A stretch of 64,000 nt of DNA from Escherichia phage muut, in sequence record NC_052657.1; one strand, given 5' to 3'. Position 1 is the stretch's first letter. The number at the start of each line of letters is the position of its first letter. The translations under genes and the position numbers were made by a program. A model generated the notes under the pieces. The model made no database searches and was not told the origin of the DNA. It saw only the letters and a list, made by a program, of their open reading frames with translations. Positions 7,584 to 55,100 of this stretch are shown piece by piece.

Positions 7584-7585
7584 AC

Positions 7586-9565: not shown

Positions 9566-9585
9566 ACCCCCTCAAGGGGGTTATT
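9566..9585 (+). terminator. terminator-like hairpin
   Basis: CCCCCT-CAA-GGGGG hairpin then TTATT; directly before next RBS. Confidence 0.35.
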
Positions 9586-9595
9586 AGGAGGAGAT

Positions 9596-30838: not shown

Positions 30839-31041
30839 TACACAACTCCTTATTGTTCAAGAGTAAAAGGAATGATTTCACCATAGCTGTATTGCATGGC
30901 ATTCACTTCTGCTTCTGCACGTTGTGCTAGTTCTAATGTTGCACAGATTTTATAAGGTACAGTGCTGCATTGGCTCCAGCCTGGGGGTATTCTTTGTTAC
31001 TAAGTACACAGTAGTTTGTTTATCCATCTTCTTTTCCTCTT

Positions 31042-31257
31042 TTAAACAGTATATTCGTGTGGAAGGAAAACATAGTCTTCTCCTTCAACAACATCAACTA
31101 CTTCCCACTTCCAGCCAGGTACTTGGCTCATTGTCTTGAATGACACATAAGCAACTCCGCTGTAAGCGATATCGGCATCTAACATAAGAGGGAAAGCAAC
31201 GTGTGTCAACCCCAGATAACCACAATTATTTTCAATACACACCTGAATGCTTTTCAT
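31042..31257 (-). CDS. hypothetical protein (71 aa)
   Basis: ATG with GGAG RBS 1 nt after upstream stop. Confidence 0.45.
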   Translation of the reverse strand: MKSIQVCIENNCGYLGLTHVAFPLMLDADIAYSGVAYVSFKTMSQVPGWKWEVVDVVEGEDYVFLPHEYTV

Positions 31258-31258
31258 G

Positions 31259-31576
31259 TTATGCTCCATTAAAGACGGGGCGCGTAGCGTTACGTTCATC
31301 ATCAACTGTAATAAGGTTTTTCATAACCATAACACCCTGAATATAGCCTAGCCAACGATGGCGTTTGGTTTCAGACATACCATTACACCCATCCTGAATT
31401 TCATTCAACATCCACAGTAAGTGGGAAACACCTGTTTCACTAGTATCTGGATCTTCTACAGAACTAAGCATAGTTTCATAGCGTTCACAAATTTCTGGGT
31501 AGAATTCATAGTCCTGTTGTACATCTCGCATTTCTCGAATGGAGTGAGGATCAATATACAAAGCTAAGGTTCTCAT
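31259..31576 (-). CDS. hypothetical protein (105 aa)
   Basis: GAGAGG RBS. Confidence 0.5.
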   Translation of the reverse strand: MRTLALYIDPHSIREMRDVQQDYEFYPEICERYETMLSSVEDPDTSETGVSHLLWMLNEIQDGCNGMSETKRHRWLGYIQGVMVMKNLITVDDERNATRPVFNGA

Positions 31577-31646
31577 TTACACCTCTCATTAGTAGTTTGT
31601 TATGCGCGATATTGCATATCTTATGGAACACAGTGTACAGACATTT

Positions 31647-32021
31647 CTATTCAATGCAAGCATTATTTGCATCTTCGATTCTGTCTTTCACCCATTGAAG
31701 ACGTAACGTGTTGGTATGACACGCCAAGTCTATACACTCTGAAAGGTAATCCATGCAATCTACATTGAACGGAAGATTGTAGTCCAGTCCTGCACATGTA
31801 AATTGTTTCCTCATTTCGTATTTCAAACTATCCAACAAACGATCACGCCATCTTTTATCTTCTTCTCTAGTTGTCTCACCAACAAAATCATCTACATAAT
31901 CTACCAGACAACCACATAAGCCACTCGTTGTGCGATTCATTGCAGGATAGTTGGCAATCCATGCTTTATAGAAGCGAAGCAATGTTGCACTACTCAACGG
32001 AACATTTTTACTCTCTTGCAT
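31647..32021 (-). CDS. hypothetical protein, paralog family A (124 aa)
   Basis: GAGAGGAG RBS. Confidence 0.5.
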   Translation of the reverse strand: MQESKNVPLSSATLLRFYKAWIANYPAMNRTTSGLCGCLVDYVDDFVGETTREEDKRWRDRLLDSLKYEMRKQFTCAGLDYNLPFNVDCMDYLSECIDLACHTNTLRLQWVKDRIEDANNACIE

Positions 32022-32369
32022 GATAATCTCCTCTCATCGTTAGTCATCTTTCATGGCAATCATCAATCACCAACATCATACGATCAATCTTAGGGAATTA
32101 CAATCGAATTATCATAGGGGATTCCTATCAATTATTCTATATATACCTATTATTTTTAACACACCCCTTTGTACATAATATAGACAAATAAATATCTATG
32201 CCACAAAAATTTTCTGGTATACCCGATTTATTTCGACACACCCCCTTTTCATAAGCGTAAAGTCAATAATATCAATAACTTGCCGCAAAATACTGCTCGC
32301 TTGCGAGAGGTGCTTAACGCGATTTTCAGCGCCCCGCGATTTTTCCCGACCGTCCCCCTCAAATATCAA

Positions 32370-32400
32370 TGAGAATAATTATCATTTGCATTATCATTCA
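32370..32400. repeat. Fur-box-like palindrome
   Basis: GAGAATAATTATCATTTGC, 14/19 to GATAATGATAATCATTATC. Confidence 0.35.
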
Positions 32401-32554
32401 ATGACTTATAAGACTTTTGATTATTTTCTGAGCAAGAAAGGTACTACTCACAACAAAACAGATAAATTCTAAGTAAATCAATGGCTTGGCAAGTCTAAAC
32501 ATCTATATACACCTTGCCAAATGAAATGATCTGGCGTGAAATAGTGCTACCCGT

Positions 32555-32580
32555 GGAAGATAGCTGATAATGATTATCAT
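32555..32580. repeat. Fur-box-like palindrome
   Basis: GATAATGATTATCATTTGC, 16/19 to Fur consensus. Confidence 0.45.
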
Positions 32581-33107
32581 TTGCATATTTTCTATACTAT
32601 AAAACGCACTAAAAATCAAGATAATTCTGATTTATTGCGCTTTTAAGAAAGTAGGCTCAACAAATAGGCTATAACTATGCTCAACAAATAACAATAATAG
32701 TATGAAAAATCATTTATTCAGATATAAATAATTTTGCGCAATAGTAGTAATATTTTTCTTGACAAGAAAGATTTCTTTGTGTTCACATAGCGCCCCCTGG
32801 AAGGTGGCGCATTATGATCATCAATGTCATTATTCACCATGTTTATTATTGCATAGCTTATTATTTAGCTTATATTATAGCCAATGTTCTAAACACTAGC
32901 TAATAATAACGCACCGCAACAATGTAAGGGATACAATATACCATGTATATTGTTGCGCTTGCAATTGTTGCAAGCTACATAAGCACAAATAATAACTATC
33001 GGTGATGGTTATTATGTGGGGTGTGTAGTTGCGTTATTATTAGCCGCCTATGTGTCCGGCATAGGCTGCTAATGATACGCTTGCGAATTATATTTCTTGT
33101 TATAGTT

Positions 33108-33175
33108 ATTGTATGAAATGATTACCACATGAAATGGTTACTGTATGCAATGATTACTGTATGAAATGATTAGTT
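33108..33175. repeat. four tandem ~16-bp direct repeats (iteron-like)
   Basis: GTATGAAATGATTAC / CATGAAATGGTTAC / GTATGCAATGATTAC / GTATGAAATGATTAG. Confidence 0.55.
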
Positions 33176-33189
33176 AGGTAATAAATAGG

Positions 33190-33470
33190 AAGGTAAAGGT
33201 TAGATCATAAATAGATAGGATATGAATTATTTAGTAATGTTACTAACGATTTAATAGTTACTTTGTGCAATAATTCGATAGATTATAGTTATAGTTTTAA
33301 AGGTTAGATAGATTATATTTAGCTTAGTAATGATTTATATTAGTTATTGTTGTTTAATATAAGGTTATCAATGAGATAGTAACAGTAAGTTATAAATAAA
33401 GGTTAGATAATTAGTTTTAATTTAGTTAGATAACTTATTATTTTATAGGTTAGATGGTCATAAGTTAAGA
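33190..33470. repeat. dispersed AAAGGTTAGAT repeats (4-5 copies)
   Basis: Copies near 33196, 33297, 33408, 33434, 33446 in AT-rich context. Confidence 0.45.
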
Positions 33471-33545
33471 ATGATTATCATTATTGCATTATGCAGCTTA
33501 TTGCATAAATAATCAGCTATAAATAAGAATGATTATCATTTAAGA
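33465..33545. repeat. two Fur-box-like palindromes
   Basis: AGAATGATTATCATTATTG and AAATAAGAATGATTATCAT; second is near-identical to 43383-43405. Confidence 0.45.
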
Positions 33546-33733
33546 GGAAAGACAAGAAAAAGGCTGTTTTTGCCAGATAGTTGCATGAAGAAATTAAAAA
33601 TAAGCGGTCTAAAACACGTTGTAAGCGCCTTATGATCTTCATGGTATGGTTGTTCATCTGCTCCTTGATTAGCTCGATACCGCGATCTATTCACTTTTTT
33701 CGGTGAACGTTTTTGATAGGTAAAAGCTATCAT
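33536..33733 (-). CDS. hypothetical basic protein (65 aa), doubtful
   Basis: ORF at edge of non-coding region, poor RBS. Confidence 0.25.
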   Translation of the reverse strand: MIAFTYQKRSPKKVNRSRYRANQGADEQPYHEDHKALTTCFRPLIFNFFMQLSGKNSLFLVFPLK

Positions 33734-33744
33734 CTTTATTTAGG

Positions 33745-33771
33745 TAAAAAGAAAGGGCGCAATAAGCGCCC
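33745..33771 (-). terminator. rho-independent terminator
   Basis: GGGCGC-TTATT-GCGCCC then TTTCTTTTT on minus strand. Confidence 0.55.
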
Positions 33772-33787
33772 TTGTTTGAAATGTTAT

Positions 33788-34171
33788 TTACTGATAAGCA
33801 GGATCGTTTGTTATATCAATCCAATGAGCTAAATTAATTTTATTTTTTGCTTTCATTTTCTCGATCAAACGTTCGGCTAATGTCTCGGAACGAATATAAA
33901 CATAATCGCTAAAATCTTGCCCCGTTTCTTCGTCGATCATTTCCCTATATTCAACCTTGCCGATAAACGCATGATTCAGCGCATAAGTTTTACCCGTGTA
34001 CCAGTTGTGTAAATGAATCTCGCATTTATAATCGTCGCTATAACCTTCGGTTGTTCTAACTTCAACCAAGTCACCTTTAAACACTGATAAGCACCACATA
34101 GGATCATGATCTACAGCGCCGTTAAAATCTTTACCGTTTACAGTCGCTGCCAGGTTGATGATATTGCTCAT
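33788..34171 (-). CDS. hypothetical protein (127 aa)
   Basis: AGGAatcacc RBS. Confidence 0.5.
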   Translation of the reverse strand: MSNIINLAATVNGKDFNGAVDHDPMWCLSVFKGDLVEVRTTEGYSDDYKCEIHLHNWYTGKTYALNHAFIGKVEYREMIDEETGQDFSDYVYIRSETLAERLIEKMKAKNKINLAHWIDITNDPAYQ

Positions 34172-34246
34172 GGTGATTCCTCGTTTACCGTTTAAAATTG
34201 TTTGCCCTACACGATAACTATAAATTAACAGAGGCTATAAAGCAAG

Positions 34247-34477
34247 TTATTTTTCATAGAATTTTTCTACTGTGATATTCTTCCCAGTGGGATTAGCTAC
34301 TTTCAAAATTTTATCATGTACTGGACGCCCAAAAGAATAAGATCCGTATACAGTAAACCAATAATCGCCGTCAGGCTGTACTATTACCGCCGCATATGGT
34401 ACGCCTTTTTCGTTATTGCTGACAGAATAGATCACATTGCCGTTCAGAGCCACAGCGCGTTTAATTTGTTCGATCAT
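34247..34477 (-). CDS. hypothetical protein (76 aa)
   Basis: ATG with AGGA RBS downstream of hairpin; ORF-track N-terminus translates the hairpin (GGKWFPA). Confidence 0.5.
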   Translation of the reverse strand: MIEQIKRAVALNGNVIYSVSNNEKGVPYAAVIVQPDGDYWFTVYGSYSFGRPVHDKILKVANPTGKNITVEKFYEK

Positions 34478-34496
34478 GATATGATTCCTATATTGA

Positions 34497-34555
34497 GCGG
34501 GAAACCACTTCCCGCCTACGTGATACATCTTAGTATAAGGGCGATCCGGTGTCAA
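34497..34555 (-). promoter_or_regulatory. promoter plus stem-loop cassette
   Basis: TTGACA-17-TAAGAT then GCGGGAAACCACTTCCCGC hairpin. Confidence 0.55.
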
Positions 34556-34904
34556 TAGGTGAGATTGTAAAGATTTGATAGTTTATTTCTTTAATGTTTT
34601 GTTGTTTGATAGGTGGAAGCTATCAATATATAATAAGATCGTCCGGTGATTATCTTCCCCTGCTCCCAGGTGCCGCCCGTTCCATAATAATAATCAAAAG
34701 CAGGATAAAAGGCAAGATAAAAAGCAAATTATTTCCTATGTGCTTTAAACGCTCTAAATAGTTTTATAACAGCTTTTTCATCCTGGCAAGGTGATTAGTC
34801 ATTGTTACCTTGTTTAAGCGGTTATAATCGGTTTTAGGCTGTTTTACGCCACCTTTTACGTTTATTCTTTACGTGTTACTTCCATCGTGAAAAAAGAATA
34901 CAAA

Positions 34905-34934
34905 AAAGGGCGCTTAGTGCGCCCCTTTCTTTTA
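34905..34934. terminator. rho-independent terminator (bidirectional)
   Basis: GGGCGC-TTAGT-GCGCCC flanked by A-run and T-run. Confidence 0.5.
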
Positions 34935-34941
34935 CCGTGTA

Positions 34942-35331
34942 TTAATATTCGTTATAATACATTGCTAACTTTTCATCAAAAGCCGATTGACGATCTGCAT
35001 ACTCCCAAAACATTTCCTGATCCTGTTGTTCGTCATCGTCCATCATATTAAATTGCGCAACCTCCTGGTAAGTGATCGCCATATTATAACGATAGGTGAT
35101 CTCTTCTGCGATGTTTTCCGGTAAAGATGATTCTACACTGTCTAACAGCATATTTAACATCATTTCAGCCGCTTTTTCATCATTATCAAAGCAGTAAGCA
35201 GACCATGCCGCATGATGTTTATTTTTCATCTTTGCAATCAAGCCGTTGACTAAAAAAGGCGCTACGTTGTTAACGATACCCTGTAAAGATTGAAATTTTT
35301 CAACGTTAGAAACAGAAACCAGGTTGCGCAT
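34942..35331 (-). CDS. hypothetical acidic protein (129 aa)
   Basis: ATG downstream of hairpin; ORF-track start lies in hairpin loop. Confidence 0.5.
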   Translation of the reverse strand: MRNLVSVSNVEKFQSLQGIVNNVAPFLVNGLIAKMKNKHHAAWSAYCFDNDEKAAEMMLNMLLDSVESSLPENIAEEITYRYNMAITYQEVAQFNMMDDDEQQDQEMFWEYADRQSAFDEKLAMYYNEY

Positions 35332-35354
35332 AGTATTTACCTTTTTGATTACCT

Positions 35355-35413
35355 GGCGGGAAACCATTTCCCGCCTACGTGGTAAATAGTACCATATTGG
35401 GGATCGGTGTCAA
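35355..35413 (-). promoter_or_regulatory. promoter plus stem-loop cassette
   Basis: TTGACA-16-TACTAT then GGCGGGAAATGGTTTCCCGCC. Confidence 0.55.
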
Positions 35414-35419
35414 TACTTT

Positions 35420-35806
35420 TTATTCAATATAAATCAAATTATCTTCACCAATGTAAGCATGCACCGATGGCATTAATTTAGCTGCATTTGTTAGGCGGTT
35501 GGCGGTGTTAGTAGTGTATATTTCAGGGCGATCCCAAAAGCCTACGCCGTGACCGTTACGGGTGAAATGTAAGTCATTCCCGATCTGGTTTGCTGTTGCG
35601 CCGTCGCTCATTGCCTCAGAGATAGCAGCATCATTGGCATCACAATAAGCCGCTACGTCATGAATGATCCGCTGATGGGCTTGATCTGAAAAATCATAAT
35701 CGTCTAAGTTATCAATAAAATTACCTTCATGATCCCTAGCTGATTCAGCAAAAATAAAGGCTTCTTTATAACCGTTGATGATTTCAATAATGATTTCTGT
35801 TTTCAT
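35420..35806 (-). CDS. hypothetical protein (128 aa)
   Basis: ATGA overlap with upstream gene. Confidence 0.5.
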   Translation of the reverse strand: MKTEIIIEIINGYKEAFIFAESARDHEGNFIDNLDDYDFSDQAHQRIIHDVAAYCDANDAAISEAMSDGATANQIGNDLHFTRNGHGVGFWDRPEIYTTNTANRLTNAAKLMPSVHAYIGEDNLIYIE

Positions 35807-36018
35807 GCTGTACGCTCGACAATAATAATGGTTTGCGGTATCTCGTTTTCTACTACTAACAAGGCTTTTTTCTGTGTGATAGATATTTTAACACGTTGTA
35901 AAGTAGCGGTAAAATCTTTCATTTCATTATGCGCGGATTTAGTGCAATGCCAGATCTCAGGCTTACCTATTTGCAAGCCGCGTAAAAATTCTGTTTTACC
36001 TGTCTTATTCGTGATCAT
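35803..36018 (-). CDS. hypothetical protein (71 aa)
   Basis: ATG with AAGGTG RBS. Confidence 0.45.
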   Translation of the reverse strand: MITNKTGKTEFLRGLQIGKPEIWHCTKSAHNEMKDFTATLQRVKISITQKKALLVVENEIPQTIIIVERTA

Positions 36019-36028
36019 TTGATTCACC

Positions 36029-36133
36029 TTATCCAATACCGTGGGAAGATAGGATCATGTTAGCCATAGTTGCAACCAATCCAACCGACAACGCCAGGCC
36101 AACTATTACAACCGTGAAAATTTTCTCTAACAT
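36029..36133 (-). CDS. small hydrophobic peptide (34 aa)
   Basis: GAGGG RBS; own promoter/hairpin upstream; single TM-like segment. Confidence 0.4.
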   Translation of the reverse strand: MLEKIFTVVIVGLALSVGLVATMANMILSSHGIG

Positions 36134-36151
36134 GATTCTACCCTCATTAAT

Positions 36152-36213
36152 GGGCGTTGCCTTATTGCCCCGCCCTATGTCGTACACTTTACCAGATAAC
36201 CGCGTATTGTCAA
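36152..36213 (-). promoter_or_regulatory. promoter plus stem-loop cassette
   Basis: TTGACA-16-TAAAGT then GGGCG...CGCCC hairpin. Confidence 0.5.
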
Positions 36214-36214
36214 A

Positions 36215-36409
36215 CTATTTTTTATAAGGGATCAGTAAACTTCTTGCTACCGCTTCACGTAAACCTTCCCTTTTTATCAGGTCTATTGTTGCAGGGTGGC
36301 AAGTAAAAGCCTTTGACCATTTTTGATCACCTGGTTTACGGGCGAAAATGTAAACTTCTCCGTCGATTTCATCCCAACGAGTATTGCTTGTTAGTTTTTT
36401 AAGCGCCAT
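36215..36409 (-). CDS. hypothetical protein (64 aa)
   Basis: ATG downstream of hairpin. Confidence 0.5.
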   Translation of the reverse strand: MALKKLTSNTRWDEIDGEVYIFARKPGDQKWSKAFTCHPATIDLIKREGLREAVARSLLIPYKK

Positions 36410-36432
36410 GCTGATTTCTCTTTTAGTTGTGA

Positions 36433-36488
36433 GCGGCACTATTGCCGCCCTACGAAATACATTCTACCCGATTTATAATTGTTGTCAA
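36433..36488 (-). promoter_or_regulatory. promoter plus stem-loop cassette
   Basis: TTGACA-16-TAGAAT then GCGGCA-ATAG-TGCCGC hairpin. Confidence 0.55.
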
Positions 36489-36489
36489 A

Positions 36490-36759
36490 CTATTTTTTCA
36501 AGCTCGACCAGTCAAAACACGGGGCGATCTCGTTAAAACTTGTACCCTGTAAAGCACATAATTTTTTAGCAATAGCCGCCGTAACCTGGCGTTGTACGCG
36601 CGGATCTGCTACTGATTGGAGAAAATAGGCGGTTTTATATGTGATCATGCTTTCGCCTGTTTCCTTGTTAACGTGGTGCACGGTTTTAGCCTTATCATCT
36701 TTTACCAGGGTGTAACCGGATTCGATGGCCTTGATTGCAACGTCCAAAGATATTTTCAT
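36490..36759 (-). CDS. hypothetical protein (89 aa)
   Basis: AAGAGG RBS. Confidence 0.5.
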   Translation of the reverse strand: MKISLDVAIKAIESGYTLVKDDKAKTVHHVNKETGESMITYKTAYFLQSVADPRVQRQVTAAIAKKLCALQGTSFNEIAPCFDWSSLKK

Positions 36760-36778
36760 GATTTACCTCTTTATTGAC

Positions 36779-36799
36779 GGCGGGGAATACTCCCCCGCC
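36779..36799 (-). promoter_or_regulatory. intercistronic stem-loop (no promoter)
   Basis: GGCGGGGGAGTATTCCCCGCC between upstream stop and RBS. Confidence 0.45.
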
Positions 36800-36806
36800 T
36801 TATTAA

Positions 36807-36977
36807 TTACTCTTCATCGTCGCCGTTATAGTATTCAATGCCGTTTTCATCGGTTACGGTGATGTTAACGCCACCAATAGCAACACGATCACGGGCAAAC
36901 GTCATGGCTTCATTTAAATCTTCAGACCAAAAAATATTGTGACCTTTGCGCGATACATAAAACATAGTTGGGATCAT
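36807..36977 (-). CDS. hypothetical protein (56 aa)
   Basis: ATG downstream of hairpin. Confidence 0.45.
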   Translation of the reverse strand: MIPTMFYVSRKGHNIFWSEDLNEAMTFARDRVAIGGVNITVTDENGIEYYNGDDEE

Positions 36978-37000
36978 GATTTGTTTCTCTTCTGTTATGA

Positions 37001-37057
37001 GCGGCACTATTGCCGCCCTATGTGATAAACTTTACTACGTTGTTTGCCTAGTGTCAA
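37001..37057 (-). promoter_or_regulatory. promoter plus stem-loop cassette
   Basis: TTGACA-17-TAAAGT then GCGGCA-ATAG-TGCCGC. Confidence 0.55.
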
Positions 37058-37058
37058 A

Positions 37059-37343
37059 TTATTTTTTAATGTTTTGCCCTACAAAATTAATCACTTCCTT
37101 AAGCTGTTTCTCAGTCATGATCGTGCCTGGCAATTCTTCTTTGATTTCTTCCGGTAGATAGATATTACCGCGCCAGGTTAATAAACAACCGTTTTGATCT
37201 TCGCAGATAGAATAAGAGAAGATCCACTCATTATCATTCTCAAGCTCCCAAAAGCACAAAAAATCTTCTTTCCCCAGGTTTTCAACGGTTAAACATAAGC
37301 CGCGACGTGCTGCATAGTTGGAAAGTGCTTTTGTGATCTTCAT
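37059..37343 (-). CDS. hypothetical protein (94 aa)
   Basis: AAGAGA RBS. Confidence 0.5.
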   Translation of the reverse strand: MKITKALSNYAARRGLCLTVENLGKEDFLCFWELENDNEWIFSYSICEDQNGCLLTWRGNIYLPEEIKEELPGTIMTEKQLKEVINFVGQNIKK

Positions 37344-37363
37344 AGCTTATCTCTTCTTTTAAG

Positions 37364-37425
37364 GCGGGGAAACCATTTCCCCGCTCTATGAGATACAATA
37401 TACTACCCGTTCGGTGTGCTGTCAA
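37364..37425 (-). promoter_or_regulatory. promoter plus stem-loop cassette
   Basis: TTGACA-17-TATATT then GCGGGGAAATGGTTTCCCCGC. Confidence 0.55.
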
Positions 37426-37749
37426 TCAATAATCTTCAATATTTTCTACATTGACAAAAGCATGTTTATTTTCTAAGTTTTCGCCGTACCATTGCCCCAT
37501 GTTGATTTCTGCGGTGCGCAACCAGGACATGCCGCGCTCTATCTTTTTACTTGCAATCTCGATCCGGCTTTTGCATAGTGCTTTCGCTTGCAATGTAAAA
37601 ACACTATTGCCCTGTAATGCTTCCAGGTCATCATGTGCAAGGCGATACTCTTTAAAGCCTGATTCTATCATTTCAATCGCATCAAGGAAACGAGCGCGAT
37701 GATAGAAAAAATCAGAGTTATCCAAATAAACACCGATCACAGATTTCAT
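37426..37749 (-). CDS. hypothetical protein (107 aa)
   Basis: ATG with AAGGG RBS 60 nt inside ORF-track ORF. Confidence 0.5.
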   Translation of the reverse strand: MKSVIGVYLDNSDFFYHRARFLDAIEMIESGFKEYRLAHDDLEALQGNSVFTLQAKALCKSRIEIASKKIERGMSWLRTAEINMGQWYGENLENKHAFVNVENIEDY

Positions 37750-37759
37750 AATTTTACCC

Positions 37760-37820
37760 TTTTGTTTGCGGCCTTTGCCGTTTTCAAGATATAGTTTAAA
37801 GCATAACAAAAAATTGTCAA
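37760..37820 (-). promoter_or_regulatory. promoter with short stem-loop
   Basis: TTGACA-16-TAAACT; CGGC-AAAG-GCCG hairpin. Confidence 0.4.
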
Positions 37821-37849
37821 GCCTTTAAAGCGTACAACTATAAAACCTA

Positions 37850-37969
37850 TTAAAACACAATGCATAACAACATGGCTATAGTAGCAATACAACATAAAGC
37901 CATGCTTGTTTTCCTTCCTTCCTCGTATGCTGGATTTATTACGCTATATTGTACGGGAATAATTTTCAT
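37850..37969 (-). CDS. small hydrophobic peptide (39 aa)
   Basis: AAGGA RBS; Cys-rich hydrophobic C-terminus. Confidence 0.3.
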   Translation of the reverse strand: MKIIPVQYSVINPAYEEGRKTSMALCCIATIAMLLCIVF

Positions 37970-38078
37970 GCTGTTTCCTTAATGTCTTAAAACGTGGTTT
38001 ACAATAGAAACAAGTATACAGAAGAAAAAAGATCCTGACAATAAGATCCCGAAAAATAAATGTAAATAGGGCATGGTT

Positions 38079-38381
38079 TTACTCCTTAAAAAAATCATTG
38101 ACAATTAAACTGATAACGCCCAGCACCAGATCACCAGGTAGCGCCGCGCTTTCGTTGTTGCTTGTTTGCACTTCCTCACTAGTACCAGCATGATAGATTG
38201 CATGGTAAGCAATAGTACAATAACCTTTCGTTATTTCTTTAAGATTAATGATTAGCACGTTATTTGTTTCATCTTGAAACAATTTAGCGGTGATAGTATT
38301 GTTTTCTTTTACACTATCGACTTTTATTGATGGATCATTTACACCAGAAAAAAGAAAAAACGTTTTAGCTATGCCGTTCAT
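38079..38381 (-). CDS. hypothetical protein (100 aa)
   Basis: GGAG RBS. Confidence 0.5.
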   Translation of the reverse strand: MNGIAKTFFLFSGVNDPSIKVDSVKENNTITAKLFQDETNNVLIINLKEITKGYCTIAYHAIYHAGTSEEVQTSNNESAALPGDLVLGVISLIVNDFFKE

Positions 38382-38428
38382 GTAGTTCTCCTTTGTTGTG
38401 TGTATCTTATAACGTGCTTTCTATGTTG

Positions 38429-38830
38429 TCAATCTTTTATCTCGGTGCATTTTGCTAGGGTATACGTTGCAAGTGCTGACACTAGTTTTTCATTGCTACG
38501 ATCTGCGGCTGTACTGTGTACTTTTTGAATACTTTTTAACCACGGCGTAAAATTTTGAGTAGTCAGCACACTGGTAATAATTTCACATGGCACATCTTCA
38601 TTTAAGCCGTTAACAATAGACTTATCTATTTTTGCCGTTAGTTGTGTAACAGCACCATAAGCGATCATGTGTGAATCCTCCATGATTTCATCGGGGATCG
38701 CATTATTAATAAGCATGACGTTTTCCATTGCATCAACGGCGCTTAATTCTGCTACTGTGGAGGATATCGCCGCGCTAGATGTTCCAACCATGCCAAAATA
38801 GATTAAACCAGCGATCAATAAGTTTTTCAT
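38429..38830 (-). CDS. secreted/periplasmic protein with signal peptide (133 aa)
   Basis: ATG with GAGG RBS; N-terminal MKNLLIAGLIYFGMVGTSSA signal-like segment. Confidence 0.5.
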   Translation of the reverse strand: MKNLLIAGLIYFGMVGTSSAAISSTVAELSAVDAMENVMLINNAIPDEIMEDSHMIAYGAVTQLTAKIDKSIVNGLNEDVPCEIITSVLTTQNFTPWLKSIQKVHSTAADRSNEKLVSALATYTLAKCTEIKD

Positions 38831-38838
38831 TTCTTGCC

Positions 38839-39021
38839 TCATATATGTTTTATTGAGATTATATTGTCACTATATACAACGTTTTTCAACGTGTCAATAA
38901 AAATCTTATTGCCTTCAATCCCCAGGATCACGCCGCTAGTTATGAAGCCATATTGATCACGATATCGGGCGCATAACCTTTGCCCCTGGGCTAGTGCCTT
39001 GCTTATTTCGTCTAATTTCAT
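38839..39021 (-). CDS. hypothetical protein (60 aa)
   Basis: GGAG RBS. Confidence 0.45.
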   Translation of the reverse strand: MKLDEISKALAQGQRLCARYRDQYGFITSGVILGIEGNKIFIDTLKNVVYSDNIISIKHI

Positions 39022-39115
39022 TTTTAAAGCTCCTGTAAAGCTGTCTAACGTGGTTTATAGGCTTATCCTGGCGTTACCATTGCCTATGGGTAACAAGCCT
39101 CTATATAAGCTAAAA

Positions 39116-39139
39116 GGGCGCTTATTGCGCCCTTTTTTG
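39116..39139. terminator. rho-independent terminator (bidirectional)
   Basis: GGGCG-CTTATTG-CGCCC with T-run. Confidence 0.5.
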
Positions 39140-39277
39140 TTATTCGTTCCAGTATCTTTTTGTGCTGCGATCTCTTTTTGTTTTGTTCCGCTTATCGCCT
39201 TTTTTGGTGATCTCTTCGTTCCAATTTTTACGCGCCTTGCTGCGGTTGAATTTTTCGATCTGCTGTGATGCGTTCAT
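39140..39277 (-). CDS. small basic protein (45 aa)
   Basis: AAGGA RBS; Lys/Arg rich; plus-strand ORFs here look spurious. Confidence 0.4.
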   Translation of the reverse strand: MNASQQIEKFNRSKARKNWNEEITKKGDKRNKTKRDRSTKRYWNE

Positions 39278-39292
39278 GTTTTTTCCTTTTAA

Positions 39293-39652
39293 TCACGCCA
39301 CGTTATGCTGTTTTGCCAGGGTTACGATCATGCTTGCAATATATAACCAATAATTTTCCCGCTCACGGGTAACGGTTGTTTCTCTGCTTGTTTCTTTTAT
39401 GTACTTCCATTCAATTAACAAGTGATCGATCTCGTTATAATCAAAAGCAATATTGATTTCTGACGGTAAACCTTGTAACCAGGAGGCTATCGCCTTGATC
39501 ATGTTATGATTGTAACGTTTTTGATTATCGGGATACCAGTATTCAGAATTAAAACGGCGCATCAGTTCGGTGATTTTTTCTTTTTCGGTTGTAGTACCAT
39601 CAAAAGAAATAGCCGACAAAATGTAAGTTTTAATTGCTTTTGCTGATTTCAT
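39293..39652 (-). CDS. hypothetical protein (119 aa)
   Basis: AAAGAG RBS after hairpin. Confidence 0.5.
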   Translation of the reverse strand: MKSAKAIKTYILSAISFDGTTTEKEKITELMRRFNSEYWYPDNQKRYNHNMIKAIASWLQGLPSEINIAFDYNEIDHLLIEWKYIKETSRETTVTRERENYWLYIASMIVTLAKQHNVA

Positions 39653-39673
39653 AATCTTATCTCTTTATTGATG

Positions 39674-39732
39674 GCGGGAAACCATTTCCCGCCGTTGTTG
39701 TTACTTTACTTATAAATGATGCTACTGTCAAG
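39674..39732 (-). promoter_or_regulatory. promoter plus stem-loop cassette
   Basis: TTGACA-18-TAAAGT then GGCGGGAAATGGTTTCCCGCC. Confidence 0.55.
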
Positions 39733-39738
39733 CGAATA

Positions 39739-39909
39739 TTATTTATTTTTTAACGTTAATGTTCCCAGCTTATCAGCGTGACGCAGACCAGGAAAGATCC
39801 ATTTTCCTGATTCATCTTTCACCGGGGCTTTAAGCGTAGCGCCCAGGTTGGCGGCGTTAACTTTACGTGCAACGTTGCGAGCGGCTTCACGGGTGGCGAA
39901 AGTGATCAT
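39739..39909 (-). CDS. small protein (56 aa)
   Basis: GAGGA RBS after hairpin; below ORF-track cut-off. Confidence 0.45.
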   Translation of the reverse strand: MITFATREAARNVARKVNAANLGATLKAPVKDESGKWIFPGLRHADKLGTLTLKNK

Positions 39910-39932
39910 GATGTTTCCTCTTCTCTTTGTTA

Positions 39933-39993
39933 GGCGGTGGGCTATTCCACCGCCTTAATGAATATAGTTTACTGATTTTAGTTATCTTGTCAA
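39933..39993 (-). promoter_or_regulatory. promoter plus stem-loop cassette
   Basis: TTGACA-16-TAAACT then GGCGGTGG-AATAGC-CCACCGCC. Confidence 0.55.
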
Positions 39994-40001
39994 GATTATT
40001 T

Positions 40002-40229
40002 TTAGTTTAATCCATCCAGGCACAACAAGCGATCAACGTTTAGATCGGTTAGGCTAATCGTTGGCACCTGGTAGGATTCGATGTACTCAACGCTCGACCA
40101 TTGCCCAAAGTTAGCGACCGCCCAGCTATTCAAGGAGGAGTGAAGATCATCCCCTTTCTTCTCTGTGATAACTGCTACTACCTGAGAGATTCCAACCGTA
40201 CCGGATACGCGAACAATAACGATAGCCAT
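40002..40229 (-). CDS. hypothetical protein (75 aa)
   Basis: AAAGG RBS after hairpin. Confidence 0.5.
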   Translation of the reverse strand: MAIVIVRVSGTVGISQVVAVITEKKGDDLHSSLNSWAVANFGQWSSVEYIESYQVPTISLTDLNVDRLLCLDGLN

Positions 40230-40251
40230 AATGATAACCTTTCTTTGATTT

Positions 40252-40312
40252 GGCGGGAAACCATTTCCCCGCCTTATGTGATAAACTATACCAGATTAAA
40301 AAACGTTGTCAA
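40252..40312 (-). promoter_or_regulatory. promoter plus stem-loop cassette
   Basis: TTGACA-16-TATAGT then GGCGGGGAAATGGTTTCCCGCC. Confidence 0.55.
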
Positions 40313-40321
40313 CTGCTTTTA

Positions 40322-40561
40322 TTACATTCCTACCATAGCGGCGCGGATACTGGTTTTACTGAATTTATAGCCATCTGGCGTAGTATTTTCGCCCATTTCG
40401 TTAAGTAGTGACATCATTTCACGCGCGGCGTTATCTTTATTGTTGTTCACGGCTATAAATTCTTTTGCCATATTATAAAAACCTGGATCGTTATTAATCC
40501 AAAGGCTTACATTCCAATGAGTTTTATTTTTGTGACCGTTGTACATTTTAGATTTAGCCAT
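40322..40561 (-). CDS. hypothetical protein (79 aa)
   Basis: AAGAG RBS after hairpin. Confidence 0.5.
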   Translation of the reverse strand: MAKSKMYNGHKNKTHWNVSLWINNDPGFYNMAKEFIAVNNNKDNAAREMMSLLNEMGENTTPDGYKFSKTSIRAAMVGM

Positions 40562-40585
40562 GATGTTAATCTCTTTTTCAGTGAG

Positions 40586-40644
40586 GCGGGAACTATTCCC
40601 GCTCTCGATGTAAACTATTATACAGTACTAAGATACTTTGTCAA
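40586..40644 (-). promoter_or_regulatory. promoter plus stem-loop cassette
   Basis: TTGACA-16-TATAAT then GCGGGAATAGTTCCCGC. Confidence 0.6.
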
Positions 40645-40647
40645 TAC

Positions 40648-40923
40648 TTAAGTATTGTAAATGTCGTGAATAGTGATAAAGTTTTTACGACCGTAAACAT
40701 GTAAATCAGTATCAATGTAGTGCTTATCAAGTACATCCTCGACGCTTAACGCGGTGTCGTGAATATCTTCGTAGAATTGAGGATCTACAATCTTACTTAA
40801 ATCATCCGGCGTTAACTTATCATTAAGCCATTGAACCGCCTGGATATCTGCTTCACGTTTCCAGTCTTCCAGGTTAGTAGTCAGTACTTGTTCGATTTCG
40901 TTAGCTGTCAGTAGAATCCGCAT
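40648..40923 (-). CDS. hypothetical protein (91 aa)
   Basis: GGAA RBS. Confidence 0.5.
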   Translation of the reverse strand: MRILLTANEIEQVLTTNLEDWKREADIQAVQWLNDKLTPDDLSKIVDPQFYEDIHDTALSVEDVLDKHYIDTDLHVYGRKNFITIHDIYNT

Positions 40924-40956
40924 TTTAATGTTTCCTTATCAGTGGTTGATGTAAGT

Positions 40957-40984
40957 ATTATACTCGTTTACTTTCTATTGTCAA
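40957..40984 (-). promoter_or_regulatory. sigma70-like promoter
   Basis: TTGACA-16-TATAAT. Confidence 0.55.
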
Positions 40985-40994
40985 ACTATTTTAT

Positions 40995-41100
40995 CAGGGG
41001 GAGTTTTTCGTGTGCCTTACTCCTGGGCTACTTAACGGGGTGTTACTTCGTTCCCCCGTCCTGATATGAAACATTTTACGCTTTTTATTCGTGCTGTCAA
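40995..41100 (-). promoter_or_regulatory. second promoter followed by double stem-loop
   Basis: TTGACA-16-TAAAAT, then ACGGGG...CCCCGT and GGAGT...ACTCC hairpins. Confidence 0.45.
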
Positions 41101-41106
41101 TGCTTT

Positions 41107-41472
41107 TTATAAATCTTTTTTACGTTTAACATCGCTTGCATGGCTGTATACAGCGATCCCATTGTCACGGCAAAAACGGGAAAGATACGCGCCGCGTGAA
41201 AACTCTTTACCTTCCAGGTTGATAACCTTGCTAAACTCTTCTAGGGCAACGGTATCAAAATGATCCCCGTATCCATATTGGAACGGCACGTTTACCACTT
41301 CGATCAGTTTACCGCCGATCTCAACGTCAACCATCAAAGAGAAATAAGTATTACCATAAGACTTTTGAAACCAGCGACGGGCGCTAATATGCACCGCTTC
41401 AATGCTGGATAGTTCAATTTTAGCCGTGTTAGCCAGGGTAGCATAAGCGGAAACATTAATATTTTTAGCCAT
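41107..41472 (-). CDS. hypothetical protein (121 aa)
   Basis: AGGA RBS. Confidence 0.5.
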   Translation of the reverse strand: MAKNINVSAYATLANTAKIELSSIEAVHISARRWFQKSYGNTYFSLMVDVEIGGKLIEVVNVPFQYGYGDHFDTVALEEFSKVINLEGKEFSRGAYLSRFCRDNGIAVYSHASDVKRKKDL

Positions 41473-41509
41473 GATTTTATTCCTTAGTAACGCTTCAATT
41501 TATATAAGC

Positions 41510-41537
41510 ATTATAGCTTACTGATTTCAGTTGTCAA
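41510..41537 (-). promoter_or_regulatory. sigma70-like promoter
   Basis: TTGACA-16-TATAAT. Confidence 0.55.
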
Positions 41538-41558
41538 GTGATTTTTTATTTCACCTTT

Positions 41559-41615
41559 GAGGGGGTTGCCCCGCTCTATGTGGTACATATTACGGGGCTT
41601 GTTTGCATATGTCAA
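41559..41615 (-). promoter_or_regulatory. promoter plus stem-loop cassette (tandem with 41510-41537)
   Basis: TTGACA-17-TAATAT then GAGCGGGGCAACCCCCTC. Confidence 0.45.
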
Positions 41616-41618
41616 GCC

Positions 41619-42173
41619 TTACACAATGCAATTTTCATAATTTTTTAAGGCTTGTATTTTTTCCTCTTCTGTCGGCCTATATGGCTGGATCTCTTCCTCT
41701 TCCAGGGTGGGCATGATTTCTTCCTCTTCCTCCTGGTCGTCCTGGTCTTCCTCTTGCGCTATGGTAACAAGTTTATTGATCTTCTCCTGGGCTTTAATCA
41801 ATTTTGCATCTAGCACCATTTTAGCGGTGTTGTATACAGTCCATGCCATGCGCTTTTCTTCGTATGCCTTATCTAGTGCGGCTAATTTAGCGGGATACTC
41901 TTCTAACACCTTAAAAGCCGGATCAATGCTATATAAGGGATTATTTTTAGCATCATCGCTTGGATCTGCGGCGCTTGCAATGTCAGCGTTACCATTTGCC
42001 AGCCAACCAGGGCGAACGGATCGCGCCTTTGTGTTGCCGTTGCTCTTTGCCGCTCGATTTCCTATCTGCTCCCCGCTATACCCTACCATGTGATCGATCA
42101 TTTCATCTGGTATTATGCGCGGATCATTAGCGTCATGCTTTACCCATGACTGGATCACATATTCACGCCCCAT
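41619..42173 (-). CDS. hypothetical protein with acidic C-terminus (184 aa)
   Basis: ORF overlapping upstream gene end. Confidence 0.5.
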   Translation of the reverse strand: MGREYVIQSWVKHDANDPRIIPDEMIDHMVGYSGEQIGNRAAKSNGNTKARSVRPGWLANGNADIASAADPSDDAKNNPLYSIDPAFKVLEEYPAKLAALDKAYEEKRMAWTVYNTAKMVLDAKLIKAQEKINKLVTIAQEEDQDDQEEEEEIMPTLEEEEIQPYRPTEEEKIQALKNYENCIV

Positions 42174-42435
42174 GTTCGTTCGCCTCTTCTGTTAGTAGTT
42201 TACATACCTTAAACATGCTTGCCGCATCTTTTGACGGTAGCCAGCCTATCCGATACACTCCAGGATCTGGATTAGTTATATCAGTTAGTTGCGCGTTGCG
42301 ATGATTAAAAATAGTGTAACCGCCGCCAGCACGGGGATAAACATTATCTTTAAACCTGATAGCGTATCTCGCCAGGTCGAACGTTGTAGCATGTTCAAAA
42401 GCGATCACATTATCAAAAACTTTTAGAAAAAACAA
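42163..42435 (-). CDS. hypothetical protein (90 aa)
   Basis: TTG start with GGGGAGG RBS. Confidence 0.45.
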   Translation of the reverse strand: MFFLKVFDNVIAFEHATTFDLARYAIRFKDNVYPRAGGGYTIFNHRNAQLTDITNPDPGVYRIGWLPSKDAASMFKVCKLLTEEANEHGA

Positions 42436-42437
42436 GA

Positions 42438-42584
42438 TTATCCTCCCCAGCGTTTAAAGCCCGTTGCACGGTTGTTTTTTAGCTCTCGTTTTAGTCTCTT
42501 GCAACGGTTTACAAGTGCAAACCGTGCCGGAGTCGTAACAGTAGCGCCGTTTTTGGTGTGAATACTCATTACATATTGTTTCAT
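42438..42584 (-). CDS. small basic protein (48 aa)
   Basis: ATG after hairpin; stop overlaps RBS of next gene. Confidence 0.4.
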   Translation of the reverse strand: MKQYVMSIHTKNGATVTTPARFALVNRCKRLKRELKNNRATGFKRWGG

Positions 42585-42604
42585 AAAGTTTTATCCTATG
42601 TAAG

Positions 42605-42656
42605 CGGGAACTATTCCCGCTTTAAGATAGCTTATCAGGTTTTAGTGCAACGTCAA
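42605..42656 (-). promoter_or_regulatory. promoter plus stem-loop cassette
   Basis: TTGACG-16-TAAGCT then GCGGGAATAGTTCCCGC. Confidence 0.5.
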
Positions 42657-42690
42657 CCGTTTTTTTAATCTTTTTTCATTTCTTTTTTGC

Positions 42691-42744
42691 TTGCTATCTA
42701 TAAAGGAAACGGCTATTATCTTTCTACCGCGCCAACCAGGGCGC
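42691..42744 (+). promoter_or_regulatory. divergent promoter plus stem-loop (plus strand)
   Basis: TTGCTA-17-TATTAT then GCGCC-AACCAG-GGCGC hairpin. Confidence 0.45.
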
Positions 42745-42766
42745 ACATCAAAGAAAGGGCGATACC

Positions 42767-43033
42767 ATGACAAATACCCCTTTACATCTCATGCACTCAT
42801 TGGGCTGGCAAGGCGGCACGGTGCACCAGGTAGCAAGCGCAACGGGCTTAAAGGTTGAAACCGTTCTCAACCTGGGCGATCATAAGGTGGAAGAAATAGA
42901 TCATTTTGATACGTTCGCAAATGGTTATCTATGGGCTTGCAGTGGCGGCGGGGAAAGCAAGATCCCGCCAGGGGCGCGGGGCGACATGTATTTTTGGTTA
43001 GGTGTCCTATCCTGGCAAGAAAACAAAAAATAA
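42767..43033 (+). CDS. hypothetical protein (88 aa)
   Basis: AAGGG RBS; lone plus-strand gene between minus blocks. Confidence 0.5.
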   Translation: MTNTPLHLMHSLGWQGGTVHQVASATGLKVETVLNLGDHKVEEIDHFDTFANGYLWACSGGGESKIPPGARGDMYFWLGVLSWQENKK

Positions 43034-43035
43034 TC

Positions 43036-43064
43036 TTGACAAGCCCAGGGATCGGGCTTATACT
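43036..43064 (+). promoter_or_regulatory. sigma70-like promoter
   Basis: TTGACA-17-TATACT. Confidence 0.5.
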
Positions 43065-43070
43065 GTTTTA

Positions 43071-43170
43071 CATACAGAAGAGGAAGCGCCACCCCCACGG
43101 CGTAAAGGCGGGGCTAACATACCAGGGCACTACTGGTTGGAAGGTTGATCGCCGGTAGCTCGTCTAAAAT
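43071..43170 (+). ncRNA. candidate small structured RNA
   Basis: GC-rich hairpin-rich ~100 nt after the promoter, with no ORF and no RBS. Confidence 0.25.
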
Positions 43171-43314
43171 AAATTTGTAAAGAAATGTAAAGATAAAAAT
43201 AATCGCTTGCTTTTGTTGTTGGTTATGCTATTCTTATTGTATGGCGAGGGGATACGGGAGCGCGAGACAAACACCACCCCTGCGCGTTATTCTCTAAATG
43301 AGAAAATTCTTATT

Positions 43315-43405
43315 TGGTAATGATTCTCATTCTCTTACTGAGAATGATTATCACTTACATAATTAAATGATAATGATTCTCATTTACAAATGAGAATGAT
43401 TATCA
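43315..43405. repeat. cluster of four Fur-box-like palindromes
   Basis: TAATGATTCTCATT, GAGAATGATTATCAC, GATAATGATTCTCAT, GAGAATGATTATCAT. Confidence 0.45.
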
Positions 43406-43430
43406 TCCGCACACCCATAAAAACACGAAA

Positions 43431-43631
43431 TTGAACTTTTCATTTTTGATTTTTCTACGGAAAAAGGCAAAAAAACTTTAAATAAACTGGGGAATTTTTA
43501 AAAAATTGAAGTTTTCATTTTCAAAATCTGGACAGAAATACATACAAAAACTTTAAATAATTTTGACCAAACTTGAACTTTTCATTTTCAAAATTTGTAG
43601 CCAAAAATCTGTAAAAACTTTAAATAATTTT
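43431..43631. repeat. three tandem ~62-67 bp direct repeats
   Basis: Each unit: TTGAA(C/G)TTTTCATTTT(C/T)(A/G)A(A/T)(A/T)T ... AAAAACTTTAAATAA. Confidence 0.55.
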
Positions 43632-55099: not shown

Positions 55100-55100
55100 A

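Follow-up and report, generated by a model that had tools for sequence, protein, structure and literature searches.

Escherichia phage muut (NC_052657.1) carries, within the 64,000-nucleotide stretch analysed here (the window), a compositional island in which small genes follow one another as single-gene promoter-hairpin cassettes. On balance, we interpret this island as a host-takeover compartment at the terminus of a phi92-like virulent myophage, expressed pre-early or immediate-early and with a composition that would be tuned to the naive host machinery. The initial annotation of this DNA had marked positions 33536-43100 (the block) as a GC-richer, cassette-bearing leftward region, probably acquired as a module from a phage lineage of higher GC content. 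The compositional distinctness of the block and its organization in promoter-hairpin-open reading frame (ORF) units are confirmed, while its acquisition as a single module is not supported.

The window belongs to Justusliebigvirus (phi92-like E. coli myophages of the Stephanstirmvirinae), being 96% identical to records classified there, and the block with its surroundings is ~96% identical to Justusliebigvirus genomes of ~147 kb, including vB_EcoM_ZYD (hereafter ZYD), AV123, inny and outra. In the matching records of this genus, every gene of the block is labelled 'hypothetical'.

A compositional island with sharp boundaries

The block has a GC content of 0.401 and the DNA outside it one of 0.366, a significant difference over 500-nt windows (Mann-Whitney p=7e-6), and the GC-richest 9,565-nt segment of the entire window starts at 33,600, thus recovering the block of the initial annotation. 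This excess is modest (+3.5 points). The main signal lies in synonymous sites and dinucleotides, and the dinucleotide contrast far exceeds the GC contrast. Pooled GC content at third codon positions (GC3) is 0.410 for the 25 block genes versus 0.286 for the 102 genes outside (p=7e-11), and C at the same positions (C3) is 0.215 versus 0.128; the corresponding values at first positions are 0.474 and 0.487 (not significant), at second positions 0.344 and 0.330, and in intergenic DNA 0.374 and 0.373. The codon tables of the two gene sets differ strongly (chi2=511, 58 degrees of freedom, p=1e-73), and the observed/expected ratio (o/e) of CpG is 1.20 in the block versus 0.66 outside, that of GpC 1.37 versus 1.02. 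Karlin's dinucleotide distance δ* between the block and the rest amounts to 167, where equal-sized chunks of the rest average 30 and never exceed 44, and the correlation of tetranucleotide z-scores is 0.40 for the block as compared with 0.61-0.78 for such chunks. Sliding-window GC, codon usage and tetranucleotides therefore all distinguish the block clearly from the rest of the window.

Two features to which the initial annotation had pointed in this context do not account for the shift. The frequent GGCGGG/GCCGCC runs are real, GGCGGG/CCCGCC being enriched 16-fold in the block (1.46/kb versus 0.09/kb), but 9 of the 14 are intergenic, where they form hairpin arms, and with intergenic GC equal inside and outside they were rejected as the source of the excess. 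Acidic proteins encoded by GC-rich codons had also been suggested; aspartate and glutamate make up 13.3% of residues in the block versus 14.4% outside and the choice between GAY and GAR codons is unchanged, so that amino-acid composition was likewise discarded as a cause.

Cumulative-sum (CUSUM) analysis places the change-points at 32,223 and 43,285 for CpG and at 32,254 and 43,284 for GpC, and the true island therefore starts ~1.3 kb to the left of the start first proposed. CpG o/e is 1.19 within 32254-43284 versus 0.68 and 0.67 on its outer sides, and δ* between this island and the rest of the window is 170. In 3-kb windows along the 146 kb of ZYD, CpG o/e ranges from 0.39 to 0.84 except in four windows over the homologous block (1.07-1.20), the island homologue being the only region of such composition in that genome. 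The bulk of the window is depleted of CpG at codon positions 2-3 (0.52) and 3-1 (0.61) and in intergenic DNA (0.62), none of which applies to the island, and the strand skews of the island are unlike those of neighbouring genes on the same strand. The strong CpG depletion of the bulk phage genome spares codon positions 1-2. As a separate observation, the phage encodes several DNA methyltransferases, such as those predicted at 15734-16723 and 10014-10523 of the window by homology to the ZYD annotation.

The left edge of the island lies next to a putative genome end. In the annotation of Salmonella phage UAB_1, also a Justusliebigvirus, the genome begins and ends with the same 343-bp direct terminal repeat, whose homologue in the window (Table 1) is found 61-92 nt from the left CUSUM change-point; independently, a terminal repeat of 342 bp has been reported for the Justusliebigvirus BME3 in a study that used PhageTerm to analyse DNA packaging (PMC12210895). 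With this repeat at its left edge, and with ends mapped from the annotation of relatives, the linear genome would end in the island, which makes up ~11 kb (7.5%) of it. Instead of an insertion junction, the left 'boundary' would then be the physical end of the virion DNA, leaving a single internal boundary at 43.28 kb. The island is single-copy in the ZYD genome.

Cassette architecture and exchange between genera

The proteins of the island provide few functional clues. PHROG families, each of unknown function, are matched by 23 of the 24 proteins of the leftward array and by 24 of the 25 island proteins scanned, one having no match, and Pfam adds only Phage_30_8 (T4 gp30.8) for 33788-34171, Phage_1_1 (T7 gp1.1) for 39140-39277 and DUF7249 for 40322-40561. 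Neither a credible ORF nor a PHROG match was found for 33536-33733. The divergent gene at the inner end has counterparts with 69% amino-acid identity in Phapecoctavirus anhysbys and 76% in the Vequintavirinae phage A73.

Almost every gene of the array possesses its own cassette, the island totalling ~25 single-gene cassettes, in which an A/T-rich upstream element is followed by TTGAC[AG], N16-18, TAnnnT, ~6-9 nt, a GC hairpin, a Shine-Dalgarno sequence and ATG. The promoter pattern has 42 matches in the window, half of them (21) in the block, and 18 of these 21 are on the gene strand within 9.5 kb; TTGACA-type promoters also reach their highest density at the island, 19 of 56 falling within 12 kb. 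The 25 nt upstream of the -35 element are 73% A+T, compared with 60% for the block. A hairpin of -12 to -19 kcal/mol follows 13 of the 18 promoters (controls, -5.0 +/- 3.9), beginning about 6-9 nt past the -10 element; the intervening nucleotides often read CAYATAGG, and a typical hairpin is GGCGGGAAATGGTTTCCCGCC. In the sense direction no U-tract follows the promoter-associated hairpins, and the two of them that the terminator scan lists (36779 and 39669) are listed for the opposite strand only; a terminator role of these 5' hairpins is therefore doubtful. Only three terminator-like hairpins were found for the 24 genes, and they subdivide the array.

Table 1. Coordinates of the island, its cassettes and its flanking elements in the window
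Feature	Position	Strand	Basis and remarks
Compositional island (CpG/GpC not depleted, GC3-rich, codon usage halfway to that of E. coli)	32254-43284		CUSUM
Homologue of the UAB_1 343-bp terminal repeat	32315-32657		96.8% identity; contains two Fur-box-like sites
AT-rich non-coding stretch, mostly ~27-33% GC, from last island gene to terminal repeat	32658-33535		Iteron-like repeats
16-nt tandem repeat, 4.2 copies	33106-33172
Iteron-like ATCTAACCT, 4 exact copies	33197, 33301, 33400, 33447 (span 33197-33455)
Two Fur-like sites	33467-33485 and 33522-33540		Motif scan
Terminator-like GC hairpin, T/A tracts on both sides	33745-33773		Terminator scan; repeat families I1, I2, I5, D17
24 small genes (45-184 aa), transcribed towards genome terminus	33788-42584	-	ORF list
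18 sense-strand promoter cassettes	34527-42656	-	Pattern TTGAC[AG]-N16-18-TAnnnT; near-consensus sigma-70
First bases of their -35 elements	34555, 35413, 36213, 36488, 37057, 37425, 37820, 38432, 38897, 39731, 39993, 40312, 40644, 40984, 41100, 41537, 41615, 42656	-
Two further terminator-like hairpins	34902-34930 and 39112-39136		Terminator scan
Cassette (gene 36215-36439) present here, missing from inny	36224-36481	-	blastn; bounded by 17-nt promoter repeat TTGTCAAACTATTTTTT at -35
Representative cassette: TTGACA (40312-40307), N16, TATAGT (-10, ends 40285)	40251-40312	-	Sequence reading
Hairpin of representative cassette, GGCGGGGAAATGGTTTCCCGCC	40273-40252	-	-15.6 kcal/mol; upstream of gene 40002-40229; repeat families D1, D5
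Cassette (gene 40648-40923) swapped for unrelated gene in ZYD and inny	40624-41050	-	blastn
Divergent 88-aa gene at inner island end, GC3 0.53	42767-43033	+	phrog_19316, E=1.5e-58
Promoter-like TTGACA-N17-TATACT, rightward into non-coding boundary region	43036-43064	+	Promoter scan
Four overlapping palindromic Fur-box-like sites (GATAATGATTATCATT-type), just outside inner compositional boundary	43316-43407		Motif scan
Three tandem 67-75-nt repeats	43427-43631		Repeat family D4; Tandem Repeats Finder period 67, score 177

The cassettes are demonstrably exchanged one by one, by horizontal transfer between genera. In blastn comparisons with ZYD and inny, each breakpoint of an insertion, deletion or replacement falls in the promoter/hairpin repeats (36224/36481, 39950-39973, 40624/41050 and 42649-42664). 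The repeat bounding the cassette missing from inny belongs to repeat family D2, with copies at 36186-36225 and 36461-36500, and the cassette replaced in ZYD and inny is 87% identical to one of A73, where it occupies another position in the array. Four patches of the island are 90-92% identical to Phapecoctavirus, as against 66-72% or unalignable sequence for the adjoining core genes, and the edges of these patches fall at cassette junctions; identity at four-fold degenerate sites is ~0.85 in the patches and 0.71 in the island overall, versus 0.455 in the flanks. Single island genes have homologues in records of T4-like, T1-like, T7-like and jumbo phages. The horizontal component of the initial annotation thus holds at the level of cassettes.

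The island as a whole is conserved. It is syntenic in Phapecoctavirus anhysbys (CpG o/e 1.1-1.33 versus 0.58-0.88 in the flanks) and in A73, where most of the block has a ratio of 1.0-1.24 versus 0.64-1.06 in the flanks, and the islands of the three lineages are alike (δ* 34-63, compared with 111-180 to their own bulk). Many of their genes are orthologues that occupy corresponding positions in different genera, with amino-acid identities of only 35-78%. In the case of A73, the signature is kept although the island is not GC-richer than its flanks (0.396 versus 0.403). Moreover, a near search matched the block to 290 phage records, with a query coverage of 80% or more in 44 cases, which together with the synteny in the other two lineages departs from the patchy presence expected of an acquired island.

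Compositional equilibrium, codon usage and the parallel with phage T5

The island is at its own compositional equilibrium and does not drift towards the resident composition. Polarised singleton substitutions, taken from an alignment of six Justusliebigvirus genomes, are balanced in the island, with 137 changes from A/T to G/C and 136 in the opposite direction (predicted GC 0.397, current 0.395), as they are in the flanks (114 and 116; predicted 0.361, current 0.365). Per-site substitution rates are similar in the two compartments though the equilibria differ, and per-site loss of CpG is half as frequent in the island as outside (p=0.02). As the predicted GC equals the current one, the island is not the fading relic of one acquisition.

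The sharp boundaries, the repeat arrays on both sides and a δ* of 167-170 to the bulk, as between distant genomes, would all agree with the proposal of the initial annotation, namely a module acquired once from a higher-GC phage lineage, kept as an un-ameliorated relic and with its insertion marked by the flanking repeats. We nevertheless consider this origin highly improbable, and as a recent event it is largely refuted already. Besides the balance of substitutions, which contradicts a decaying donor composition, and the same composition at the same place in three lineages, one of which lacks any GC excess over its flanks, one of the two 'boundaries' would be the end of the DNA molecule. Repeat arrays do bracket the block, as had been stated, but they are multi-copy palindromic operator-like motifs of Fur-box type, two copies of which lie in the terminal repeat, and no att-like duplication of a target site accompanies them. 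PHROG families of annotated function, including any integrase or recombinase, are missing from the 25 island proteins that were scanned. A search of 50,697 phage records revealed no lineage that could have donated the module as one contiguous homologous piece, and given the spread of single-gene homologues over such diverse phage groups no single donor lineage, of higher GC or otherwise, stands out.

The codon usage of the island is displaced towards that of the host. In relative synonymous codon usage (RSCU), the island differs from the bulk much as E. coli does, the two difference vectors correlating at r=0.82 (Spearman p=5e-16; K-12 codon usage from a 50-kb sample of 44 genes), and the correlation holds within GC-ending (0.78) as well as AT-ending codons (0.55). 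Along this axis the island is displaced by 53% of the distance between bulk and E. coli, as compared with 0.016 +/- 0.09 (maximum 0.16) for contiguous sets of 25 bulk genes, and its dinucleotide signature is nearer to E. coli (δ* 92) than to its own genome (170). An adaptation to highly expressed E. coli genes was rejected, the shift showing no significant correlation with Sharp-Li weights (rho=0.17, p=0.2). The 16 tRNA genes of ZYD, mostly readers of A-ending codons, are located far from the island.

The same displacement occurs in phage T5 (NC_005859), whose left terminal repeat is annotated as first-step-transfer (FST) DNA that enters the cell first, with pre-early genes and an injection stop signal at its inner edge. 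Up to 10 kb, T5 has CpG and GpC ratios of 1.06-1.49 and 1.36-1.67, respectively, and beyond that point 0.51-0.92 and mostly ~1.0-1.2. When positions 1-10219 are compared with 10220-40000, the FST region shows a δ* of 185 (null 20-55) and a GC3 of 0.392 versus 0.323, and the codon shift from early to pre-early genes correlates with the E. coli axis at r=0.83, with a projection of 0.53. The shift vectors of T5 and of the island correlate with each other (r=0.76), and so do the RSCU values of the island with T5 pre-early genes (0.87) and of the bulk with T5 early genes (0.91). No match to the island proteins was obtained in the first 40 kb of T5 (tblastn, E<=0.01), so that the same shift without shared genes points to a functional cause rather than to ancestry. 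In limited searches of the open-access literature, we found no description of a compositional island in T5, rV5 or phi92-like phages.

These observations lead us to propose a model in which the ~25 small genes, each driven by its own near-consensus sigma-70 promoter, would be expressed by the RNA polymerase, ribosomes and tRNA pool of the host in their unmodified state, at a time when the 16 tRNAs and the other functions of the phage are not yet acting. Because this naive machinery would read the genes first, their composition would be held halfway to that of E. coli, the rest of the genome staying at a separate AT-rich, CpG-depleted equilibrium. The GC stem-loop that most of them carry, predicted at or near the 5' end of the mRNA, might act as a stabilising cap, as an attenuator of read-through, or as both. 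The repeated promoter/hairpin elements, in turn, would serve as recombination linkers, like those of T4-type phages discussed below, by which single cassettes are gained, lost, swapped and passed between genera.

Selection would not be needed if the composition simply reflected an external pool of mobile early-gene cassettes from coliphages that are not CpG-depleted (e.g., T4-like phages), with turnover by promoter/hairpin recombination outpacing the drift towards the resident composition. This is a possible, though not a likely, explanation. It would fit the position of the breakpoints, the highly similar Phapecoctavirus patches among divergent core genes, the cassette common to A73 at a different position and the scattered single-gene homologues; a candidate type of source is illustrated by the RB49-like T4-type phage Krischvirus W115, with a GC content of 0.40 and a CpG o/e of 1.0-1.3 throughout its genome. 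It would also explain why the signature is confined to genes organized in cassettes and is absent from adjacent ORFans and from other sigma-70-driven genes. Cassette flux alone does not, however, predict that the FST region of T5, with neither detectable shared genes nor a comparable single-gene cassette layout, should have the same shift. The syntenic cross-genus orthologues have diverged considerably and keep the signature in both genera, new substitutions within Justusliebigvirus are already balanced at the GC of the island, and its non-coding parts, including the stretch by the terminus, carry the signature too. The T5 parallel, the presence of the island in several lineages and the balance of its substitutions thus argue against a single-transfer relic and weaken pure flux as well.

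A region-specific mutational regime, by which the terminal segment would differ from the rest in its replication, repair, recombination or transcription (a nearby origin or terminus, or intense transcription by host RNA polymerase, being possible reasons) and would so reach another neutral equilibrium, appears very unlikely to us. The inclusion of non-coding DNA and codon-junction dinucleotides in the signature, its extension through the iteron-bearing non-coding stretch to the terminus, the distinct equilibrium at similar substitution rates and the deviating strand skews would suit such a regime. But a single phage replisome copies the whole molecule, and a simple mutational bias would not follow E. 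coli preference within both GC-ending and AT-ending codons. Transcription-associated deamination of the non-template strand was rejected, as it would lower C on the coding strand, where C3 rises from 0.128 to 0.215. In addition, nothing comparable exists in the terminal region of Bacillus phage SPO1.

Flanking regions, known systems and the proposed role of the island

Between the last island gene and the terminal repeat, the AT-rich non-coding stretch with its iteron-like repeats may serve as an origin or as a signal for packaging or ejection; a strong G-over-C skew is seen at 33.0-33.5 kb. A 2.6-kb non-coding gap within a region of small ORFs is described in the rV5 paper, and it may correspond to this stretch.

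Fur-box-like arrays bracket the island at 32368-32584 (the two copies inside the terminal repeat), 33467-33540 and 43316-43407. The motif, which agrees at 15 of the initial 16 positions with the Fur-box consensus GATAATGATAATCATTATC (a sequence that appears in 54 papers), occurs 22 times in the window against 2.25 expected, with 17 of the 22 matches in the two flanks, and the same placement beside the island is found for 10 of 11 matches genome-wide in ZYD and for all 7 in anhysbys, A73 having none. The sites are palindromic and operator-like, and either Fur or a phage protein may bind them; we found no description of Fur boxes in lytic phages in the open-access literature. The region at 43.1-43.85 kb is non-coding and rich in repeats, with its four Fur-box-like sites and, at 43427-43631, tandem repeats lying in a 27%-GC non-coding stretch that reaches the stop of the convergent gene at 43846. 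DnaA boxes are absent from the island boundaries. The rightward promoter-like site reads into a GC-rich, conserved non-coding stretch at 43036-43300 that precedes the Fur-like array and may be a small RNA or a leader; it has no Rfam match at gathering thresholds. The surrounding sequence is conserved at 79% in anhysbys (42649-43503) and at 76% in A73 (42650-43170).

At the other genome end, the left one of the linear molecule, the patch 30846-32198 (gene 31647-32021), located directly past the terminal repeat, is ~90% identical to anhysbys, with 90.6% amino-acid identity and 35 of 37 four-fold sites identical, and the small genes next to it are only 28-60% identical; this patch amid divergent neighbours suggests recent exchange around both termini.

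Some further observations concern the window and its records. Scans for tRNA genes and Rfam families over the whole window gave no matches. The 937-aa ORF at 55062-57875 appears, by synteny, to be the counterpart of the ZYD gene annotated as 'intein-containing UvrD', and since the helicase annotated at the matching position of Phapecoctavirus anhysbys is only 1.6 kb long, an intein or insertion in this ORF is suggested. Nineteen records named 'Campylobacter phage' match the block, such as A145 and A110a, which are unannotated and ~96% identical to muut, and the ZYD record is filed as Vequintavirus in spite of its ~96% identity to records classified as Justusliebigvirus; both are probably labelling errors in public records.

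Among known systems, the cassette architecture is like that of the PeSL (promoter-early stem-loop) elements, while the position, size, boundary structure and composition of the island resemble the FST region of T5. PeSL cassettes are known from T4-type phages, where they occur in hyperplastic regions (Arbiol et al. 2010, PMC2839356; Comeau et al. 2014, PMC4122927). They share with the cassettes described here a repeated consensus sigma-70 promoter, an A/T-rich upstream sequence, a stem-loop with G/C tracts, a Shine-Dalgarno sequence, small ORFans on their flanks and, between related phages, indel and replacement crossovers inside the elements. The present array occurs in another phage family, here in a Justusliebigvirus, and is a single terminal one instead of several internal regions. 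Its stem-loop lies nearly always just past the -10 element, probably inside the transcript, a placement downstream of -10 that is also found in one of five PeSL subclasses (PMC2839356; PMC4122927). The hyperplastic region of the RB49-like phage W115 shows no compositional contrast, because that genome is nowhere CpG-depleted.

The likeness to T5 goes beyond composition and the equal codon projection. The T5 FST region is terminal and comprises ~8% of the genome (7.9%; bioRxiv 10.1101/866236), a share close to that of the island; both regions hold small genes behind strong host-type promoters, T5 dmp, A1 and A2 are also transcribed towards the terminus, and tRNA genes lie outside the region in both phages. 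Both inner boundaries consist of ~1 kb of non-coding DNA dense in direct repeats, palindromes and motifs that resemble the binding boxes of a host protein; in the non-coding stop signal of T5, DnaA boxes accompany numerous repeats and palindromes (bioRxiv 10.1101/866236). In contrast to T5, the island has no homologues of A1, A2 or dmp by tblastn, PHROG or Pfam and no protein homology at all, its boundary motifs are Fur-box-like, and its genes form uniform promoter-hairpin cassettes. The terminal repeat has 343 bp instead of ~10 kb, and the island is therefore single-copy. Lacking A1, A2 and dmp, a long terminal repeat and DnaA boxes, the island is not a member of the T5 FST family. Two-step DNA transfer in the manner of T5 is a hypothesis for this phage group.

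Bacillus phage SPO1 also has a terminal cluster of ~24 small early genes, several of them annotated in host shut-off, but this module lies within a 13-kb terminal redundancy and forms no compositional island (δ* 39, null 20-36; CpG 0.49 versus 0.45). Lambdoid morons, each a lone gene equipped with its own promoter and terminator and deviating in base composition (PMC2839356), are likewise autonomous single-gene units that differ in composition from their surroundings. Unlike the island, morons occur dispersed among temperate phages, and illegitimate recombination is regarded as their route of arrival; here an ordered, conserved array, which has no more than three terminator-like hairpins among its 24 genes, resides in a virulent phage and its composition is a stable property of the compartment. 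PeSL arrays have so far been described in T4-type phages; the present PeSL-like array stands outside them, as a single terminal array coupled to a compositional island.

Several points weigh against the role of the island as an early host-takeover compartment. Its early timing would follow from promoter consensus, and we found neither transcriptome nor DNA-entry data for this phage group in the open-access literature. The virion ends are those mapped for relatives, and the island genes point towards the terminus. Strong sigma-70-like promoters are also present in the PRPP-synthase/NAMPT/tRNA region of ZYD (138-144 kb), where CpG o/e is only 0.72-0.75, and the small ORFans adjoining the island (window 20-32 kb) are without the signature. 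As SPO1 has a terminal host-takeover module and no island, the pattern is not general. Selection on codons does not readily account for CpG being undepleted at codon junctions and between genes. The codon adaptation index (on the same Sharp-Li weights) rises only from 0.26 to 0.30, the shift being towards average E. coli usage, and a simple avoidance of codons read by phage tRNAs had a mixed outcome: GGA, ACA, CCA and CAA fall in the island, and TTA, CTA, TCA and AAA do not.

A further proposal, which we regard as unlikely, is that phi92/rV5-like myophages deliver their DNA in the manner of T5, the terminal 7.5% entering alone and being expressed from host promoters before the rest, tRNA genes included. 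The boundary at 43.1-43.85 kb would then be a pause signal, with the Fur-box-like arrays in the role proposed for the DnaA boxes of T5. If this were so, DNA entry or early expression could be coupled to the iron status of the host, and a CpG/GpC-replete, host-like island in a CpG-depleted, tRNA-rich genome would be a sequence-only marker of the first-entering DNA.

Our results illustrate that a compositionally deviant block need not be a transfer relic, since this one is at equilibrium despite internal cassette exchange. They also provide a testable hypothesis on DNA entry in the rV5/phi92-like group. If the island is indeed an early compartment read by naive host machinery, composition alone would separate two translational or expression regimes in one virulent phage genome and would mark its first-acting segment, a marker that is also present in the experimentally defined FST region of T5. 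It would offer a cheap, sequence-only way to locate host-takeover or anti-defence gene sets, all of them annotated as 'hypothetical', and possibly genome ends, in many rV5/phi92-like therapeutic phages.

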